Positions 1 through 21,165 of a DNA stretch of 64,000 bases are shown piece after piece. This stretch comes from a phage, in the NCBI GenBank assembly GCA_020619395.1, contig GCA_020619395.1_4860.1, one strand, 5' to 3'. Both the position numbers and the translations under genes were made by a program. Under the pieces are notes generated by a model that was not told the DNA's origin, searched no databases, and saw only the letters and a list, made by a program, of their open reading frames with translations. The number at the start of each line of letters is the position of its first letter. Within the stretch, counting starts at the first letter, position 1.

Positions 1-392
1 CTACCCAGGCTGGTTTCTGCCTGACTGGTATAACCGGATACGATGTATTGCGTTTCCTGAGTGCGTGTTGCATTCAGAGGTTTAGCAATAAACACCGCCA
101 CGAAGTTAAAGATACCGGTATCACGTGATTCCCATTGGAACTGTACAGGACGATTGTCATCATCGGACACGTTGATGAATGGACGCTCAAAACCATTCTG
201 GGTGCCATCGAAGCCCACGATGGCAGATAATGCTTCTTGATACTGCTGTGTTCCCACAGCTTTTTCCCCGCCCAGTTCAACCGCTGCTGCTAAGTCATCC
301 AGTGCACCCGTCGATGCGTTAAAGCCGATGCGGCGACGAACTTGCTCTGGAACATCGTAGACCGGATACATCAGTAGATTTACAAGCTGCAT
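1..392 (-). CDS. hypothetical protein, N-terminal 130 codons; gene continues beyond the window start
   Basis: ATG at 392-390 preceded by AAGGAG in the conserved leader TTAAGGAGTATTTAAA; hand translation (MQLVNLLMYPVYDVPEQVRRRIGFNASTGALDDLAAAVELGGEK...) runs to position 1 without a stop. Confidence 0.5.
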   Translation of the reverse strand, partial: MQLVNLLMYPVYDVPEQVRRRIGFNASTGALDDLAAAVELGGEKAVGTQQYQEALSAIVGFDGTQNGFERPFINVSDDDNRPVQFQWESRDTGIFNFVAVFIAKPLNATRTQETQYIVSGYTSQAETSLG

Positions 393-404
393 TTTAAATA
401 CTCC

Positions 405-2039
405 TTAAGAATTAAACCATTCAACTTCTTCTAACTTGCGACGTGCATTCAACACCATAAACTCCGCCAGGCTATTGTGCAGTGACAAGTGAGGTATATA
501 GTTTGGCTGATCCGTCTCACACTTCAGCAGCGCAGCTGCTTCTGGTGTAGCCCTGAGATGGAACAGATACGGGTTGATGTGATCCTTGTGTAACAAGGTC
601 AATGATTCCCGTGGTGTAGATTGCGGTTCGAGATTACGCGGGTTGCGATACTCCTGAAGATAATATCTATCTAAATCTGCTTTGAGTTCAGATCGAATTG
701 GGTCGGCTGCATAACCGGCAGACATCTCAGAACGCACCATATTGCAACTTAACAGTTGCGCAACGTCATACATTCCATAATTGAGATAAGTTGCCTGTGC
801 CAACGCCATACCGTAGCGAAACGCTTCTGGTCCACATTCAGTATACGTCTTATAATGCGCGCTACGATGGAGTGCTAATGCGACTAACCATTCGTGCAAC
901 GTATAGACAGGACCGTCATGTGTTGCCAGTTGCGAATCAATCAATAACTTAACATCTGCTGGAGCGGCATTATCCAGACGCATTGTTTTCAAGAAAGAGC
1001 GGTATTCTTTAAATACGTACTCGGTACGGACGTATTCTTTCATCTGTGCAGGAGAACGTGCCTGCACCAAATCCATGGCGTTTATCTTACCCTTTTCGCC
1101 ATTGAATACCACACTTTCCGGATGCGCTTTTAACAGCACCGGCTGGTTAGAGATTTTGTTTGCAAAACCTGTTTCAATCTCTTGTTTAACCAGAAAATAC
1201 ATGCCGGTGACGATATTGTTGTTAACCATGATTTCAACCGGTAATTCACCACCGACTTCACGGACAGCCAACAATTTAATAATAGCATACGCCAGGATAT
1301 AATCTTCCATCATATCCGTGCCATAGCCCCGCACCGTAGCCAGTACCGACAAACTGGTGCTGTTCGTACCTTTGTTTGCCAGTTCTTTTTCTACCTTTTC
1401 CATCACTGTCTGTAGGAACCCACGCAGTTTCGGAATAGCAGGTAAAGACATGACTTCCGTGTCTTGAAGCATCTCCAGACAGTATGTCAGATTGTACACC
1501 ATTTTCCGGTGTGTTTCGATTGGCAAGTTCTTACCTATCGGGAACGTCCCCATGGTGAGGAACACCGGAATATACGGTTTAATCATCAGGACCAGTATCA
1601 ACAACTCGTAATAGTCCGGACGAATGTACGTCATCGCTTCCGGATAATTACTGTTCATTTCATCGTGCGTATCTTCCATGTTCTGCGGAATCCACAGCTT
1701 ATCGATGGGATACAGCTTACGATACACTTCGGCCTTGTGGAACTTCGCAATCGTCTGCACAATCTTCGGCATGTGCTTACGCTGCGTTTCCGTCGATTCG
1801 TTTGCCAGCTCGTCCAGCATCAGATACGCCATGAACAGTTCATCTTGTTCGTCTGGCGTTAAATAATCCCACACGCGTTGTAATTCCATGAAGAGAATGT
1901 TGTCGCGTGCAATCTGTTTACCTTTAACAGTGATGTAGTCGGGTGCGTTGTTATCCTTCCGATAACGTAAGCCAATAAATGTGACCTCTTGACCATGATG
2001 CTCGATTGTCATCCGGTCTTTAATCTTCATAATTTTCAT
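405..2039 (-). CDS. hypothetical protein (544 aa)
   Basis: long ORF; GGAG about 8 nt upstream of ATG; promoter-like motif at 2075-2089. Confidence 0.7.
   Translation of the reverse strand: MKIMKIKDRMTIEHHGQEVTFIGLRYRKDNNAPDYITVKGKQIARDNILFMELQRVWDYLTPDEQDELFMAYLMLDELANESTETQRKHMPKIVQTIAKFHKAEVYRKLYPIDKLWIPQNMEDTHDEMNSNYPEAMTYIRPDYYELLILVLMIKPYIPVFLTMGTFPIGKNLPIETHRKMVYNLTYCLEMLQDTEVMSLPAIPKLRGFLQTVMEKVEKELANKGTNSTSLSVLATVRGYGTDMMEDYILAYAIIKLLAVREVGGELPVEIMVNNNIVTGMYFLVKQEIETGFANKISNQPVLLKAHPESVVFNGEKGKINAMDLVQARSPAQMKEYVRTEYVFKEYRSFLKTMRLDNAAPADVKLLIDSQLATHDGPVYTLHEWLVALALHRSAHYKTYTECGPEAFRYGMALAQATYLNYGMYDVAQLLSCNMVRSEMSAGYAADPIRSELKADLDRYYLQEYRNPRNLEPQSTPRESLTLLHKDHINPYLFHLRATPEAAALLKCETDQPNYIPHLSLHNSLAEFMVLNARRKLEEVEWFNS
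657..671. promoter_or_regulatory. copy of recurrent promoter-like motif AGATAATATCTATCT, inside the 3' end of the 405-2039 ORF
   Basis: exact match to the motif found in five intergenic sites; lies 265 bp upstream of the gene starting at 392. Confidence 0.3.
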
Positions 2040-6602: not shown

Positions 6603-8198
6603 TTAGCCCATCACCGCTTCCAACGGAATGCCTTCTTCATCATCCTCATCTGCTTCAATAAGGAACTGGTTCTGCATACTGATTAGCTCGTTATGTAAAA
6701 CCATGCCGTGTTCTACGCGGTCCACATCAGTAGAAGACATAAAGCCGTTATCTGGACGGAATTGGAGTGCCAACTTCATCTCAGTTTCATCGACTGGCAA
6801 ACGTACCTGGAACTGGTCGCCATCGAAATCTCCATTTGCCATCTTGATCACACGGTCAGAGATACGCAGCGAACACTGGTTAACATCGGTAACAACTTCA
6901 TCGATGTACAGCGTTTGAATAGACAACTGTACCAGCGTTGGGTTACGTAACGGTATGACCATGATCCCAAGACCGCCTGGGGATTCACGAATCAGTTCTT
7001 TAAAGATTTCATCTACAAGCGGGTCATACTGCATTGCCGCTTTCGCAACGATACGTTCACACTGCCGTGACGAATAACCGCGTCGTAGCAGTTTGTTCTC
7101 GATGTGGGTCGACATCAACCCAACCATCCAACGCCATGGTGCTTTTAACTTCCAGGCATCATGTGGTTCTGAGATAGGTGAGATGGTTGCACGACCACCG
7201 AACGGGATATGGGTAGAACCCAATTTCGCACGATAGTCACCCGGTTTACCTTCCATAGACTCACGACGGAAGTCCATGTGGAAGTACGTTAACTGACGGT
7301 TCGCCTTCAAAGCGCGACTAATCAGAAAACGTGGTTCGATCGCTTTACGCCGCGTATAGAGCAACGCGATATTTTTCACCGCATCAATAGCACCCGTGAA
7401 CACTGGGTCTACCATGACACCACGACGACCTTCCTCAGTAACGATAAGTTTAGAGGAGATTAGCGGTAAGTGTCTTGGGAAGAATGCGTGACGTTGCGTT
7501 TCGAATAGCTCCTTCCATTGTAAACGTAAGCGTTCACCTTCAGCGGCGTTATGCCGATTAGGTGCGAAGATTTCCTTCCAGGCTTCTGGCGTGGTAAGGA
7601 TGTTAAAGATACTAACGTGGTTATCAACCAGATTGCGCAAGCCACGAACGAAACCGTGTTCTTCCAATACACGTTTCACAGCATGTGCGCGTTTACCGTC
7701 TGGTTCTTCTATACGGTAATACGGGTCAATCATCCACATCATCAAGTCATTACCGCGTTCGATAGTGACCTTGTTACGTTCAAACTTCTTCAACTTGCTA
7801 TTAAAGAAAGCATTGAACATTGCCCAGAATCGTGGGTTGACGAAGTTACCCATTTCATCAGGTGCACGTAACCAGACATCGGATTCAATTCGATGTTCAG
7901 TTACAACATAGCCACACGTCGGACACTTACAACCGAGATTGTAACGATGCGCGATCGGTGCCGGACAATCCAAACTACAAATCGGTGCAGAGTTCAGTTC
8001 TTCGTCAACGATTCTGTTCTGTACCATGCGATCGATAAGTTCAGCAACTTCGATCGCATCCCCGTTAACGGCGACATCGTTAATAATAGTGGGTGGTTTA
8101 ATACCTTTGGCTGCAGCTTCTATTTGCAAATCGGACAAATAGTTATCCTGACTAACCAACCGGCCGGATATTCCGTAGAATTTTGGTACCTTTCTCAC
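6603..8198 (-). CDS. multisubunit RNA polymerase beta-prime N-terminal-like subunit (probable non-virion RNAP)
   Basis: Cys4 cluster CSLDCPAPIAHRYNLGCKCPTCG near the N-terminus; RNPTLVQLSIQ...MANGDFDGDQFQVRLP matches the bacterial beta-prime RQPTLHRLGIQ...NADFDGDQMAVHVP catalytic segment; GTG start with GAGG upstream. Confidence 0.7.
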   Translation of the reverse strand: MRKVPKFYGISGRLVSQDNYLSDLQIEAAAKGIKPPTIINDVAVNGDAIEVAELIDRMVQNRIVDEELNSAPICSLDCPAPIAHRYNLGCKCPTCGYVVTEHRIESDVWLRAPDEMGNFVNPRFWAMFNAFFNSKLKKFERNKVTIERGNDLMMWMIDPYYRIEEPDGKRAHAVKRVLEEHGFVRGLRNLVDNHVSIFNILTTPEAWKEIFAPNRHNAAEGERLRLQWKELFETQRHAFFPRHLPLISSKLIVTEEGRRGVMVDPVFTGAIDAVKNIALLYTRRKAIEPRFLISRALKANRQLTYFHMDFRRESMEGKPGDYRAKLGSTHIPFGGRATISPISEPHDAWKLKAPWRWMVGLMSTHIENKLLRRGYSSRQCERIVAKAAMQYDPLVDEIFKELIRESPGGLGIMVIPLRNPTLVQLSIQTLYIDEVVTDVNQCSLRISDRVIKMANGDFDGDQFQVRLPVDETEMKLALQFRPDNGFMSSTDVDRVEHGMVLHNELISMQNQFLIEADEDDEEGIPLEAVMG

Positions 8199-8212
8199 TC
8201 TGTCAACCTCAA

Positions 8213-8252
8213 CAAAAAAAGAGGGAAGGACGGAGGCGTTAGCCCCCGTCCG
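8213..8252 (-). terminator. intrinsic terminator
   Basis: GGACGG...CCGTCC hairpin followed on the minus strand by a 7-nt T-run, downstream of the gene ending at 8281. Confidence 0.55.
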
Positions 8253-8280
8253 TTTCCTAACTACTCAGTAACCGATTCGA

Positions 8281-10134
8281 TTACAGTTTGAAGTTGCTCA
8301 GAGACACGCCCAGACCGAAATCGGAACCGCTTGCAGACAGGCCGTTGCCAGACAGCGTGAAGTCTTCCCCACCGTTGTTGAAGAACAGAGAGGTCGCCAT
8401 CGTGTTGTAGGCATTTACACCAGTCATAGACCAGGTGCAGTTGTTACGGACGAAGTCCAGCAGGCATTTACCGAAGATCGGGTTGATAGCCATATCCAGA
8501 GATTCACCGGTAGCTTGCGGTGCTTTGGATGCGAACAGAGAAGCGGCCAGTTTCAGCATGTAGATACGCTGTTGACGCTCGTTCAGTTCACGGTGGCTGT
8601 AGGACTGTGCGTTCAGGTAGCTATAGACGTCGTTCGCGTTATCACCCAGTTTGGTAACAACGGAAATCAGGTCCATATCCTGGAAGCTACGTTTCTGTGC
8701 AGTACCGGTGTAAACACCGGAAACAGTCGGTACGGCTGCTTTCACGATGTGGCTGCAATGGATGGTACCATTGAAGGCATCGCCCAGCTGTGCTTTCAGT
8801 GCAGAAGCAAATACTGCAGTGAAGCTGGTCGCTGCAACAACTTCGCCGTTCTGATCACGCGGGGACATGGAATTCAGAATAGCGAGCAGCTGTTTCAGAG
8901 AGTTGTCGTAACCGACCGCAATTTCAGACAGCATAGTAGACAGACCACCCAGACCGTTACCGGCACGATGGCTAACTACCAGTGCTGCTTCACGCGGTGC
9001 GAACATATCCAGGCAACCTTCGATAGCTTCACGGCTACCGTCGATTTTGGATACATCAGGACGAGCGTCAGCACCCCAGGACAGGTATTCTGCCACACGG
9101 GAGAACTTGCGATCTTGTTTGTTCAGACGTTTCACAAACAGGTCACGCCAGCCACCGATTGCCGCGATTTCTGCAAATGCAGCCAGCAGCAGCAGTTGAC
9201 GTTCATACGGTGCCATTGCACCTTCAGTTTGAGAATCGACCAGACTTACTACGATTTCAGCCTGCAGCTGTTTCAGGTCGTAGACGCCGTTAACGACAGG
9301 CTTCTGACCGGTGAAACGCATGTTGACGAAACCAGTACCGGATACACGCGGATACACCTGTACCTGATTGGTGTCCAGCAGAGTCGGAGTGGCGTCGGAT
9401 ACGTTGCTTGGGCTGTGCTCAACGGTGATTGCGAAATCAGCACGTTGTGCGTGGCCGTTAGCATCCACAACCGCACCATCTTCCAGCGGCATTACTGCAG
9501 CCTGATAACGGTCATGCTTACGCAGGTTCAGCGTACCCAGGTAGCCTGCGATACGACCGAAGATGCCCATCATCATCTGACCCATCAGAGTACGTGCCCA
9601 CTCAGCATCCAGAACTTTACCCAGGTCTGGTACGGAGTTGATGATCATGAAGTTCGCATTGGTCAGACCATGCGCTTCCATGATGTTTTTCTGTACTACT
9701 GCCAGCACGTCTTTGTTGAACAGTTCAGTGATGGTGTAGTAGTCTTCCTGGCCGTTGTTGGTAGTTTCTTTCAGACGCAGAGACTGACCGCGTTCAAAGA
9801 AGATAATACCGTACAGCCAGTGGCCCTGCCATTGGCCTGCGACATACGCCGCGGAACCCATTTCGTTACCCACGCCGGCGATGGTGCCCCAGCGGAACGC
9901 GTTGAGGTATTCGTTGCTTTTCTTCAGCTCGTCCAGGAGGTTGACGAAGTGCATTGCATAGGTGCTGATGTTGCGGATGCCAAATGCGTTATCGAATTGG
10001 CTGACAGTAGAAGTACCCGGCACAGCAGTTTGCACTTTTACAGTCTCGTTGCCCAGACCGCCCAGTGGTGCGGTGTCTTGAGTCTGAGTGTTGTTCTGCT
10101 GAGCGTTGTTGTTAGAGTCAACGATTTTTACCAT
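8281..10134 (-). CDS. abundant early or structural protein (617 aa); candidate phage-nucleus shell protein (chimallin), alternatively a capsid protein
   Basis: stand-alone unit with its own promoter-like motif, conserved leader TTAAGGAATATTTAAA-ATG and terminator; adjacent to the beta-prime-like gene as in the phiKZ gp54/gp55 arrangement recalled from memory; no sequence motif confirmed. Confidence 0.35.
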   Translation of the reverse strand: MVKIVDSNNNAQQNNTQTQDTAPLGGLGNETVKVQTAVPGTSTVSQFDNAFGIRNISTYAMHFVNLLDELKKSNEYLNAFRWGTIAGVGNEMGSAAYVAGQWQGHWLYGIIFFERGQSLRLKETTNNGQEDYYTITELFNKDVLAVVQKNIMEAHGLTNANFMIINSVPDLGKVLDAEWARTLMGQMMMGIFGRIAGYLGTLNLRKHDRYQAAVMPLEDGAVVDANGHAQRADFAITVEHSPSNVSDATPTLLDTNQVQVYPRVSGTGFVNMRFTGQKPVVNGVYDLKQLQAEIVVSLVDSQTEGAMAPYERQLLLLAAFAEIAAIGGWRDLFVKRLNKQDRKFSRVAEYLSWGADARPDVSKIDGSREAIEGCLDMFAPREAALVVSHRAGNGLGGLSTMLSEIAVGYDNSLKQLLAILNSMSPRDQNGEVVAATSFTAVFASALKAQLGDAFNGTIHCSHIVKAAVPTVSGVYTGTAQKRSFQDMDLISVVTKLGDNANDVYSYLNAQSYSHRELNERQQRIYMLKLAASLFASKAPQATGESLDMAINPIFGKCLLDFVRNNCTWSMTGVNAYNTMATSLFFNNGGEDFTLSGNGLSASGSDFGLGVSLSNFKL

Positions 10135-10180
10135 TTTAAATATTCCTTAATAGTGATTGCAATCATAGTTCGGTTCGCAG

Positions 10181-10195
10181 AGATAATATCTGCCT
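10181..10195. promoter_or_regulatory. promoter-like motif AGATAATATCTGCCT, 47 bp upstream of the minus-strand start at 10134
   Basis: member of the recurrent AGATAATATC family in a divergent intergenic region. Confidence 0.4.
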
Positions 10196-10273
10196 GTAAT
10201 TTCATGGAATGCAAGTACGCCGTCGCTTACTTACAAGGCACATAGTCCAGACATTTCTCAGGAACTGTCACAT

Positions 10274-10288
10274 AGATAATATCAATCT
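10274..10288. promoter_or_regulatory. promoter-like motif AGATAATATCAATCT, upstream of the plus-strand gene at 10341
   Basis: second copy in the same divergent intergenic region. Confidence 0.4.
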
Positions 10289-10340: not shown

Positions 10341-11408
10341 ATGTTCAGCCAAGCCGAGTTAAACCAAGTGGCCATAAAGGGTCACAGCACGGACCCCTCC
10401 GCTATAACATTAGCGGCTCACGTAAAAAACAACAGCCAGCGTATACGCAACTACTACGAACAGCTTAATCGCAGTGCTGGTAATGGCCATTTGTTGCAAC
10501 AGGTGTTGTCTGCCATCGGCTATGCCGGTGAACCAGAGTACGAAGACATCGAATGGGCTTGCCGTCGCAAGCTTGTTCAGATTGGTAACGCCTTACGCTT
10601 GACGTCTGTTGGTGAGTACGGTCAAATCTTTAATAGCAAGTTTATCCAGGGCCAAGATGAGGTAATCTCTCTCGTAGCCCGCCCAGTAAATCCAGACCTT
10701 TCGTTCCGCGACTACACCCCCGCCCGTTACCTCTACCATGAGTATACCAACCTCAATTGGAAGTTCGGTGACGGACGGCCCCGAGGTGTTACGGTGATCG
10801 AAATCAACCTGGTTGCTTTGCTTTGGCAATATGTCAAAGGTCAGCAACACTACAGTCGCGGTACCGAACCTATTGCCACACCTGTGTATCTCCAACGACA
10901 TGTGATCTCTCGCATGTTGCCGAGCTACATGGATATCGCCTTTGTAAATATACATCGTGCGATAGCCTTCGGGAAAGAGATTGAACCGGATGAAACATTA
11001 CGTGTCATTCCTGTTCCACCGCTTCAAGCTTTAGCTGTGAAGCACGCAAAAGGCATCCGTAGTAAACTACTGGCTGCCAACCCGTTACCGGGACAAGTCT
11101 TAAACAACATCCCATTGTTCTTCCAACACCCTGATGAAGAAGGCCACACAGCACTGGAACTGATTGTCTTTCGAGAACCAGGTCAAACACTGCAGAACAC
11201 CTGGCACCAGAACATGGTGAACTGGTACTGGGCACTGTTTTGTCTTCAATACAACCAGGGGAATATGGAAAAGCATAAACGTACGATGTTGGTTGATTTG
11301 GCGCGTTATGTGGACTCTAAAGTCCTCACACGTCTGACCAAATCCTTCTATAACTTTATCCAACGGGATTTGATTATCCCGTTGACGACAGAGCTAGAAG
11401 AAAAATAA
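10341..11408 (+). CDS. hypothetical protein (about 355 aa)
   Basis: ATG at 10341 preceded by AAGGAG; the listed ORF begins at an upstream GTG; followed by a UUCG-loop terminator. Confidence 0.6.
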   Translation: MFSQAELNQVAIKGHSTDPSAITLAAHVKNNSQRIRNYYEQLNRSAGNGHLLQQVLSAIGYAGEPEYEDIEWACRRKLVQIGNALRLTSVGEYGQIFNSKFIQGQDEVISLVARPVNPDLSFRDYTPARYLYHEYTNLNWKFGDGRPRGVTVIEINLVALLWQYVKGQQHYSRGTEPIATPVYLQRHVISRMLPSYMDIAFVNIHRAIAFGKEIEPDETLRVIPVPPLQALAVKHAKGIRSKLLAANPLPGQVLNNIPLFFQHPDEEGHTALELIVFREPGQTLQNTWHQNMVNWYWALFCLQYNQGNMEKHKRTMLVDLARYVDSKVLTRLTKSFYNFIQRDLIIPLTTELEEK

Positions 11409-15585: not shown

Positions 15586-16070
15586 TCGCAGATTAACACC
15601 ACATCGTTAAAACTATCACCTACATACGTTTGATATCGACCCGGATACAGCGACTCTATCAATCCAGCGAAACCAGTTAAGTTTGTTAACTCTTCGACCA
15701 ACAAACTTACCGCAGCGCCGAAGGCAGCTTGATGTTGTTCGGGCGAACCTTGTGCTGCCAGAAACGTCGTATCGACAGACATTTCTTTAGCGAACTGGTC
15801 AACGGACAGACCATCGGTCACCAACTCCCAATTGCCCAGAGGTTCAAGCGTGTCTTCCTGTAACAAATCAACCATTGTCGATGGGTCACGAGTTTTCACA
15901 CCGATGATATACGCAAACGCAAAACGTTGATAAAAATCACGTATCTGCGTTTCATCAATCTCCAGGTTACTGGCTTCCAATACACGCAATGCTGCTTCGC
16001 GAACGTGCTCGTAAAACCGAGTCGCGCTATATTGGTTCGCAATATCCGCCACATCAAACAGAACGCTCAT
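15582..16070 (-). CDS. hypothetical protein (162 aa)
   Basis: ORF; 4-nt overlap with neighbours. Confidence 0.55.
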   Translation of the reverse strand: MSVLFDVADIANQYSATRFYEHVREAALRVLEASNLEIDETQIRDFYQRFAFAYIIGVKTRDPSTMVDLLQEDTLEPLGNWELVTDGLSVDQFAKEMSVDTTFLAAQGSPEQHQAAFGAAVSLLVEELTNLTGFAGLIESLYPGRYQTYVGDSFNDVVLICE

Positions 16071-16576
16071 ACACGACCTCCGAGATTACCGATAAGCAAA
16101 TCGATAACAGGCAGAAGTTGTGGGGTGATTCGCTCGTACGCTTCCTGGCTGGCAAACTGTGGGAATTTATCACCACCGTTATAGTCTAATAAGAATTCGA
16201 CATCCGCCGGATTGCGCGTTGTGTATTGTGCACCGACCCAACGACCGTAGTGAGTAAACCAATAAGGAGACTGCGATACGGCGGTCATATACGCACGACC
16301 GATGTTTTGAATTGCGGTGCCGTAAGTGATTACTTGCTCATTTTCCAACACAACGCCGTGCGCATTCAGTGTACGAGAAACAAACCCAAAGGTATTGTTC
16401 ATCATAAACTTTAACTCACTACCAATGGTTCCACGTTCCACGAAGCTCATGGCGGTATTGATTATCGAGTTCAAATCGTCATTCACTTCGCGGAGCACAT
16501 CGTTTGGCGAAAACTCCGTTAACGGCCCAGCCAATAACTGATAGCCGGGGATATAAAAATGAGATCGCTCAATCAT
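16067..16576 (-). CDS. hypothetical protein (169 aa)
   Basis: ORF in series. Confidence 0.55.
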   Translation of the reverse strand: MIERSHFYIPGYQLLAGPLTEFSPNDVLREVNDDLNSIINTAMSFVERGTIGSELKFMMNNTFGFVSRTLNAHGVVLENEQVITYGTAIQNIGRAYMTAVSQSPYWFTHYGRWVGAQYTTRNPADVEFLLDYNGGDKFPQFASQEAYERITPQLLPVIDLLIGNLGGRV

Positions 16577-16976
16577 TGTAAGTAACCCCTGTAGTTAACA
16601 TTTTCCAGACACCGTCTCCTACATGCCAGAGGAGAAAGTCGGATTGTGGTAAATAAGTCATGTCCTCGTCGATTGCTTGCCAGATGCAATCGGTGTCCCG
16701 TATCAACAACTCAAATCGACAAAGAGCCCAGTATTTTGCCGACGTGGTTGGAGTAATGATTGGGTTATCGTGAACATACTCCATAAAGAACTGGCGTATC
16801 ATGCTATCGATAACGCCATATTTTTTCCGCAGAACATGCAACCGAACAATTTGCTCGATATAGTCGTCAAGCTCTACCGCAGCATCCTGGTAATCGATGC
16901 CGAGATTCTCTTTGACGAGTGCGGTGAGTCGGCAAGTCAATCGCACGAACTCAGTATAAACCGTCATCATAGACAT
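16569..16976 (-). CDS. hypothetical protein (about 135 aa)
   Basis: ORF in series. Confidence 0.5.
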   Translation of the reverse strand: MSMMTVYTEFVRLTCRLTALVKENLGIDYQDAAVELDDYIEQIVRLHVLRKKYGVIDSMIRQFFMEYVHDNPIITPTTSAKYWALCRFELLIRDTDCIWQAIDEDMTYLPQSDFLLWHVGDGVWKMLTTGVTYND

Positions 16977-17262
16977 CTGTTACCTTACGTGGAATGAAAC
17001 GGAGAATTCTGTCTGCTTGATTATAATGATACCGATACCCTTTCGGAGGAATGCCCATTTCCTCACAGATAGCACGATGAACGTGTGACGCGATGGTGTG
17101 GATTTCCCGCGAATGACTTCTGGGACGATAACACCTAACAATCAGTGAGACTGTTTCTGTGTCCCACGCACCGTGTTCTGTAAATGTCGGAATCATGTAT
17201 TCGAGCATACAGAGAATGATATGCTTCAACCCCGTGTTAACATCATACATGCTGAACATGAT
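16951..17262 (-). CDS. hypothetical protein (start moved to internal ATG, about 104 aa)
   Basis: the listed ORF overlaps its upstream neighbour by 146 nt; internal Met removes the overlap. Confidence 0.4.
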   Translation of the reverse strand: MMFSMYDVNTGLKHIILCMLEYMIPTFTEHGAWDTETVSLIVRCYRPRSHSREIHTIASHVHRAICEEMGIPPKGYRYHYNQADRILRFIPRKVTDVYDDGLY

Positions 17263-17272
17263 GTCGCTGGGG

Positions 17273-17836
17273 TCATTCAATATCCTGACGTATGCCGTCG
17301 AGGCAATGTGATCGATCAGTACCAGACGGACGATATCGTTTGTTTGGGAAGCATTGGCGGTAGTGGATGAATCTGATGTCTTCTCCAATTTGTAACTCCA
17401 GAGATTGCACCTGCCCACGACGGGTTATGTGTGGTTCCAGTTTAATCGTCGCATAACGATTAAACGGGTGTTTGGCGGCTTTCACAGCATTCTCCACAAG
17501 CGCATGGATACTGTCCAGGAAACTGTTGTAACAGTCTTCGAATGCTAATCCGATAAGATATTCGGTAGAACGTAAAATCGCTACGGTCTCTTTCGTCTTA
17601 TTAACCGGAGTACCCAAACCGCCACTGGAAACGTGTGTACGTTCCACAGGAACTGTTTTCGGTGGAAGTATGATCTGGTCAGCCACCAACATCATCGTGA
17701 GATTAAAAGCGTCAGTATAAGGTTCCAGCAAAGGTTCCATACGTGCATTAGGCATTTCCGGAACGGAGTAAAAGATATCTTCGAGCGCAGTGTGTAACAG
17801 TTGTACAGTTAACATCTCGCGTTCTTTTTGGCTCAT
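17273..17836 (-). CDS. hypothetical protein (start moved to internal ATG, about 187 aa)
   Basis: internal Met abuts the stop of the upstream gene. Confidence 0.4.
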   Translation of the reverse strand: MSQKEREMLTVQLLHTALEDIFYSVPEMPNARMEPLLEPYTDAFNLTMMLVADQIILPPKTVPVERTHVSSGGLGTPVNKTKETVAILRSTEYLIGLAFEDCYNSFLDSIHALVENAVKAAKHPFNRYATIKLEPHITRRGQVQSLELQIGEDIRFIHYRQCFPNKRYRPSGTDRSHCLDGIRQDIE

Positions 17837-18183: not shown

Positions 18184-18198
18184 AGATAATATCTATGC
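18184..18198. promoter_or_regulatory. promoter-like motif AGATAATATCTATGC in a divergent intergenic region
   Basis: same motif family; sits between the minus start at 18153 and the plus start at 18317. Confidence 0.4.
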
Positions 18199-21090: not shown

Positions 21091-21150
21091 GATGCTTACC
21101 TTTTATAGTCGAGTTGGGGGAATTCAGATGAGGCTTTCTCATCTCACTTA

Positions 21151-21165
21151 GGTAATATCTATCTG
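21151..21165. promoter_or_regulatory. promoter-like motif GGTAATATCTATCTG (variant)
   Basis: shares the core TAATATCTATCT; about 60 bp upstream of the start at 21090. Confidence 0.35.

Follow-up and report, generated by a model that had tools for sequence, protein, structure and literature searches.

A gene of an SPN3US-like jumbo phage predicted to encode chimallin, the shell protein of the phage nucleus

Introduction

The locus analysed here raises the question of whether a phage gene lying beside an nvRNAP (non-virion RNA polymerase) subunit gene encodes chimallin (ChmA). The phage nucleus, which is made of chimallin, protects the DNA of jumbo phages from restriction and CRISPR nucleases and parts transcription from translation inside the bacterium. 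The gene, an open reading frame (ORF) at positions 8281 to 10134, is located in a stretch of 64,000 nucleotides of phage contig GCA_020619395.1_4860.1 (GenBank assembly GCA_020619395.1), and this whole stretch is referred to below as the window. A first-pass annotation made from the letters of the window had suggested chimallin on the basis of protein size and gene order. The comparisons of sequence, predicted fold and gene order reported here agree with that suggestion, and we put the probability at roughly 94% that the gene encodes ChmA, the main shell protein of the phage nucleus, in an SPN3US-like jumbo phage (Seoulvirus, Chimalliviridae).

Identification of the encoded protein

The ORF at 8281..10134 is confirmed; its strand, left unstated in the first-pass annotation, is the minus strand. 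The ORF has an ATG start and encodes 617 amino acids followed by a stop codon, with a calculated mass of 67.09 kDa. Searching with the 617-aa protein by tblastn returned 64 matching records of jumbo phages, of which 62 reached a coverage of at least 80% with identities of 43-100%, and the protein matches the PHROG family phrog_8316, labelled 'unknown function', from end to end (E 1e-302). These full-length matches in 62 records and in phrog_8316 show that 8281..10134 is a real gene. Regarding the origin of the DNA, identity to Salmonella phages of the SPN3US group (genus Seoulvirus) is 98.5-99% over the window's first 25 kb. The protein is 100% identical to its counterparts in SPFM4, Proteus phage 7, Lh1B and others, and 99.5% identical across all 617 residues to SPN3US YP_009153316.1 (locus tag ACQ60_gp244). 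All 64 GenBank records label the homologue 'hypothetical protein'.

From the family alignment, AlphaFold2 produced a model with a predicted TM score (pTM) of 0.77 and a mean per-residue confidence (pLDDT) of 73.9, with confident structure at residues 57-578 and disordered termini (1-56 and 579-617). When this model was compared to the PDB using Foldseek, the nine best matches were all chimallin or PhuN structures of Goslar, 201phi2-1 and phiPA3 (chains from 7sqv, 7sqt, 7squ, 7sqq, 7sqs, 7sqr, 8igg and 8fne), with E values from 2.3e-21 to 7.3e-17 and TM scores of 0.56-0.68 over 557-610 columns, while the tenth match had an E value of 0.05. A second tier of matches is as expected from how the C-terminal domain of chimallin has been described (PMC9365700). 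As modelled, the chimallin two-domain core is present, consisting of a predicted alpha/beta N-terminal domain and a GNAT-like C-terminal domain.

At the level of sequence, hhalign was used to compare the family alignment to one of phiKZ/201phi2-1-type chimallins, including phiKZ gp54 and 201phi2-1 gp105, and gave a probability of 88% and an E value of 3.1e-6 over 417 columns, with paired motifs such as D.NGHPQRAD/D..GNPIRSD and TGESLDMAINP.F/TGKA.R...NPKF. Single-sequence searches and searches of profiles against sequences were negative; the relationship is therefore visible only to profile-profile and fold comparison, and the sequence relationship to established chimallins is detectable but weak.

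Several observations weigh against the assignment. Pfam scans of the query and five homologues gave no family match and did not report PF25677 (Chimallin_Phikzvirus) even at E values up to 10; the top score in those scans, FliC_D2 at E 0.055, is noise. A phmmer search of the protein against all PDB sequences (E up to 1) and a search with a 27-sequence profile against the same sequences (E up to 10) both gave zero matches, and BLASTP against phiKZ gp54, a comparison that the first-pass annotation had named as a check, revealed no similarity (E 0.67 only). The hhalign probability lies below 95% and its alignment leaves out the N-terminal domain (query residues 1-126), and the alignment used as input for the fold prediction was shallow (27 sequences, 43-86% identical to the query). 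Regarding the assembled form, Heymann et al. (2020) described a square (p4) lattice in SPN3US lysates, to which Laughlin et al. linked chimallin; the protein forming this lattice has never been directly identified, and its period is 13.4-13.5 nm versus 11.5 nm for the solved chimallins. Finally, the docking of the protein tails and the expression logic of chmA described below are matters that we infer. As for PF25677, the query does not reach its gathering threshold of 27 bits, whereas phiKZ gp54 scores 1121.7 bits; the model covers the phiKZ-type branch only. In favour of the assignment, several homologues carry precomputed matches (strength not given) to a later version of the model.

The SPN3US gp22 protein and alternative functions

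Weighing the alternatives requires the numbering of the SPN3US genes to be resolved. The RefSeq locus tags run opposite to the GenBank numbers used by the Thomas laboratory, and the two numbers of each pair sum to 266; for instance, the tail sheath gp256 is ACQ60_gp010 and the prohead protease gp245 is ACQ60_gp021. The protein listed as chimallin 'gp244' by Laughlin et al. in 2022 (YP_009153316.1; PMC9365700, Supplementary Table 7), i.e., ACQ60_gp244, is therefore gp22 of the Thomas laboratory, and 'SPN3US gp244' refers to two proteins, encoded at 15768-17621 (the chimallin) and 220023-220745 of NC_027402. The latter, gp244 of the Thomas laboratory, is YP_009153538.1 (ACQ60_gp022), a virion protein of 240 aa that represents the C-terminal piece of the virion RNA polymerase (vRNAP) beta' subunit (PMC7598289). 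A 2025 preprint gives YP_009153538 as the accession of the SPN3US chimallin; as a second chimallin this protein was rejected, since it belongs to phrog_2926 and shows an hhalign probability of 0.1% to the ChmA family. The same mismatch appears to lie behind this wrong accession, and the citation is probably a numbering mix-up. With two incompatible numberings in use, it is hidden from view that 'chimallin gp244' is the same protein as the 'gp22 scaffold candidate', and no paper stating that gp22 is chimallin was found in a literature search.

The alternative that survives best, and which is nevertheless very improbable, follows from this equivalence, namely that the protein is a scaffold or core protein of the head, filling proheads until it is cleared as they mature, the role that the Thomas laboratory has proposed for SPN3US gp22. 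The 67.1-kDa gp22, termed a 'scaffold candidate', co-purifies with proheads of a protease mutant through two caesium chloride gradients; in these prohead preparations its abundance is similar to that of the major capsid protein, and mature virions lack it (PMC7411985). In lysate fractions, the peptide-spectrum matches of gp22 per unit of mass are comparable to those of the major capsid protein, and in wild-type virions they are zero. However, Heymann et al. (2020) found large square-lattice sheets when they examined clarified lysate of this protease mutant, a possible reason for the co-sedimentation, and in their SDS-PAGE of mottled capsids gp22 was scarce or absent. Because of these sheets, co-sedimenting fragments of the nuclear shell would explain the gp22 data better than a scaffold role. 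The predicted fold is furthermore that of a globular two-domain chimallin, the single AXE protease motif (AIE, residues 370-372) is buried in the core, and the orthologue of Erwinia phage Asesino is located at the nuclear rim.

Less probable again is an active enzyme, either a GNAT-type acetyltransferase or an AtaT-like, toxin-derived protein, an option raised by the GNAT-like domain of the model. No Pfam acetyltransferase family was matched, identity to GNATs is only 4-13%, and the AtaT active-site residues are missing in the solved chimallins (PMC9365700), while the capsid-level abundance of the protein suits a building block rather than an enzyme. An HK97-fold capsid protein or another virion structural protein, suggested only by protein size, high-expression signals and a neighbouring gene family with a weak 'virion structural protein' PHROG match, is already refuted by the fold searches, in which no HK97-fold protein (the homology that the first-pass annotation regarded as decisive against chimallin) is among the matches listed in either search, and by the published virion proteome, in which the SPN3US major capsid protein is another protein, gp75, and gp22 is missing from wild-type virions.

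Terminal segments and proposed assembly

Taking the protein as chimallin, its predicted parts can be placed on the gene. The folded two-domain core (residues 57-578) is encoded at 8401..9966 on the minus strand, as are all the parts given here. Residues 1-43 (10006..10134) form an N-tail rich in N, Q and T that is predicted to be disordered (pLDDT of about 25); across the family alignment its length and composition vary, while the MVK(I/V)V start is kept, and its counterpart in the 201phi2-1 chimallin is the N tail of residues 1-47, which is dispensable (PMC9365700). The following residues 44-56 (9967..10005) contain the motif FD(R/K/N)AFG at 47-52, with D48 and A50 nearly invariant, and form a short helix (46-50) in the monomer model at a pLDDT below 50. 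By analogy with the N-terminal docking segment (NTS) of 201phi2-1 (residues 48-61), they are a candidate NTS.

The C-terminal tail (residues 579-617; 8284..8400, pLDDT below 50) contains two conserved blocks, which are candidates for the first and second C-terminal segments: SLF(F/Y)NNGGExFxLSGNG at residues 582-598 (CTS1) and SDFGLGV..S.F.L at residues 603-617 (CTS2). Conservation of this tail equals that of the core (0.71 and 0.61), F584, G588 and G596 are invariant, and in the hhalign alignment the start of the tail pairs with the C-terminal region of phiKZ gp54. By analogy with solved chimallins, tails that are unstructured in the monomer model yet conserved are the signature expected of lattice-docking segments.

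The mechanism that we propose rests on the chimallins of 201phi2-1 and Goslar (PMC9365700). The N-terminal segment would dock on a neighbouring protomer to give C4 tetramers, and the two C-terminal segments would extend into adjacent tetramers, producing a square lattice that is flexible and has the thickness of a single protein. This lattice would enclose the replicating phage DNA and keep out host nucleases as well as CRISPR and restriction enzymes.

Expression signals of chmA

The first-pass annotation described the gene as an insulated unit with its own promoter-like motif, a strong conserved leader and an intrinsic terminator. All three signals were recovered on the minus strand. The translation leader (10135..10150) comprises the Shine-Dalgarno (SD) sequence UAAGGA at 10144-10149 and an AT-rich spacer of 9 nt; a further copy of the 19-mer TTAAGGAATATTTAAAATG, with a single mismatch, is found at 390-408 (-) (0 expected), and related leaders are found ahead of several other genes. 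The chmA leader is kept in Asesino and STsAS, and that of phiKZ chmA, AAGGTATTTAAAATGG, is very similar. A gene starting at 392 (-), which continues past the window's left edge and is equivalent to SPN3US ACQ60_gp235, has the leader TTAAGGAGTATTTAAAATG, nearly matching that of chmA, and this likeness suggests that it is translated about as strongly as chmA.

Regarding transcription, a scan for sigma-70 promoters detected three sites versus 6.3 expected in shuffled sequences, which is the chance level, and a host-type promoter for chmA was therefore rejected. The phage-specific motif AGATATTATCT, in contrast to the sigma-70 type, has 11 matches at no more than one mismatch versus 0.5 expected. 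Its core, ATATTAYCT, is present in six copies, exclusively on the minus (coding) strand and within the left 21 kb (658-668, 2074-2084, 10181-10191, 10274-10284, 18184-18194 and 21150-21160); the extended form is (A/T)GATATTA(T/C)CT, often with GAT ahead and nnGTGA after. Five of the six copies precede genes, and the remaining one, at 658, is within the coding sequence of a gene similar to phiKZ gp68.

Two copies precede chmA, the proximal motif AGATATTATCT at 10181..10191, 47-57 nt upstream of the ATG, and the distal motif TGATATTATCT at 10274..10284, 140-150 nt upstream; the promoter-like motif upstream of chmA can also be written ATATTATCT. Both are kept in Asesino and STsAS, and conservation of the 206-bp intergenic region is 76-80%, compared to 71-79% for the coding sequence. 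In jumbo phages that encode RNA polymerases, AT-rich motifs of about 10 nt ahead of early operons have been described as early promoters of the vRNAP (PMC7598289), and phiKZ carries TTTATATTACT upstream of gp54. The motif of the window resembles the phiKZ TATATTAC-type early element, and the proximal copy is predicted to belong to this early (virion-RNAP) promoter class.

Downstream of chmA, an intrinsic-terminator-like element is located at 8214..8257 (-). Its hairpin (8228-8251), GGACGGGGGC-UAAC-GCCUCCGUCC, has a G+C-rich stem of 10 bp, extended by GGAA/UUCC, and a UAAC loop; after it come CUC and a run of seven U (8214-8220). The hairpin appears in both the minimum free energy and the centroid structures (z = -2.6 for the 96-nt region) and is kept in SPN3US, STsAS and Asesino with a compensatory change of G-C to A-T. 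It escaped a simple terminator scan, since its T-run begins 3 nt past the stem, and was recognised by RNA folding and by alignment. Within 15 nt after the U-run, and with no promoter motif in between, come the SD (GAGG, 8207-8210) and the GTG of the nvRNAP beta' gene, and this junction (8196-8257) is nearly invariant among SPN3US, STsAS and Asesino. STsAS is annotated with a later start for the polymerase gene, which is probably an annotation error.

Thus the gene has its own signals, as the first-pass annotation stated, but it is not fully insulated: the nvRNAP beta' gene, whose SD and GTG directly follow the terminator without an intervening promoter motif, probably needs read-through, and in phiKZ chmA and the nvRNAP cistron share a transcript (PMC12571901). 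Judged from these signals, the two early-type promoter motifs and the strong SD would lead to high and probably early expression of chmA, in keeping with the abundance measured for gp22 in lysate fractions. Most transcripts may end after chmA at the terminator located before the ribosome-binding site (RBS) of the nvRNAP beta' gene while a fraction reads through, and such partial read-through would yield far more shell protein than polymerase subunit.

Gene neighbourhood and annotation of the locus

The first-pass annotation placed chmA beside an nvRNAP beta' gene, as with the adjacent gp54 and gp55 of phiKZ, and this arrangement is borne out. The gene at 6603..8198 (-), with a GTG start, encodes the nvRNAP beta' N-terminal subunit, a phiKZ gp55 homologue (phrog_2987) that matches 7ogp_A with an E value of 1.4e-38 over residues 52-494. 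On the other side, the divergent upstream neighbour at 10341..11408 (+), 355 aa from the ATG at 10341, is a phiKZ gp52-like gene that shares phrog_3938 with phiKZ gp52 and has the same position and orientation as in phiKZ. The order gp52-like, ChmA, gp55-like is therefore that of phiKZ, and both the size and the synteny on which the earlier suggestion was based hold. The synteny argument is stronger than first stated because the whole block, comprising a divergent family-B DNA polymerase, the gp52-like gene, chmA, the gp55-like gene, an SbcD-like nuclease and a gp68-like gene, is collinear with phiKZ gp50-gp68.

The gp68-like gene, an ORF of 544 aa at 405-2039 (-), is a homologue of phiKZ gp68, the fifth subunit of the nvRNAP (7ogp_B, E 2.8e-6), and is preceded by a separate copy of the promoter-like motif, the end of which is 35 nt upstream of the ATG. 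Its orthologue is called 'hypothetical protein' in SPN3US-group records, e.g., ACQ60_gp236 of NC_027402.

An ORF of 576 aa with a TTG start at 8515-10245 (+) runs antisense to nearly all of chmA. It was rejected as a gene because its counterpart in Asesino is broken into two ORFs (287 aa and 284 aa); in STsAS the counterpart is unbroken (569 aa). It is most likely a shadow ORF. The records of SPFM6, SPFM10, SPFM12, SPFM14 and SPFM9 contain versions of chmA of 413-586 aa, for which the best BLASTP alignment spans only 4-19% of the query; these look like frameshifts or assembly errors and not true variants.

Comparison with known systems

The chimallin assignment has already been published for the SPN3US group, and the present identification therefore brings nothing new in biological terms. 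In practice it is of use for annotation, with 64 GenBank records and a PHROG family still labelled 'hypothetical' or of unknown function. Among the closest known counterparts, SPN3US YP_009153316.1 has the same neighbours and differs from the window protein by about three residues.

Regarding Erwinia phage Asesino, which belongs to another genus (Erskinevirus) and infects another host, ChmA (gp039, ANZ48052.1) is 64.4% identical to the window protein over its full length. A GFP fusion of gp039 forms a ring around the phage DNA at the nuclear rim (PMC11724907), and the neighbouring gp040 is nvRNAP beta'1. Asesino likewise has the gp38/gp39/gp40 arrangement, the terminator-RBS junction and the promoter motifs, but its hairpin carries compensatory substitutions. 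The chimallivirus clade to which Asesino belongs lacks PhuZ.

Compared to the solved chimallins, Goslar gp189 (7SQT/U/V), 201phi2-1 gp105 (7SQQ/R/S, 8IGG) and phiPA3 PhuN gp53 (8FNE), and to phiKZ gp54, identity of the window protein is only 12-14%. It is placed outside both PF25677 and the PHROG 'nuclear shell protein' family phrog_4795, in its own phrog_8316. In contrast to the solved chimallins, an AXE protease site is missing from the stretch that joins its core to CTS1, and the only AXE motif is the one within the core. The chimallin of Seoulvirus and Erskinevirus may thus represent a deeply diverged branch which, tentatively, packs differently, as suggested by the longer lattice period at a similar protein size and by the absence of PhuZ from the Asesino clade. 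With the same reserve, the terminator-RBS junction might serve as a fixed attenuator that sets the ratio of shell protein to polymerase.

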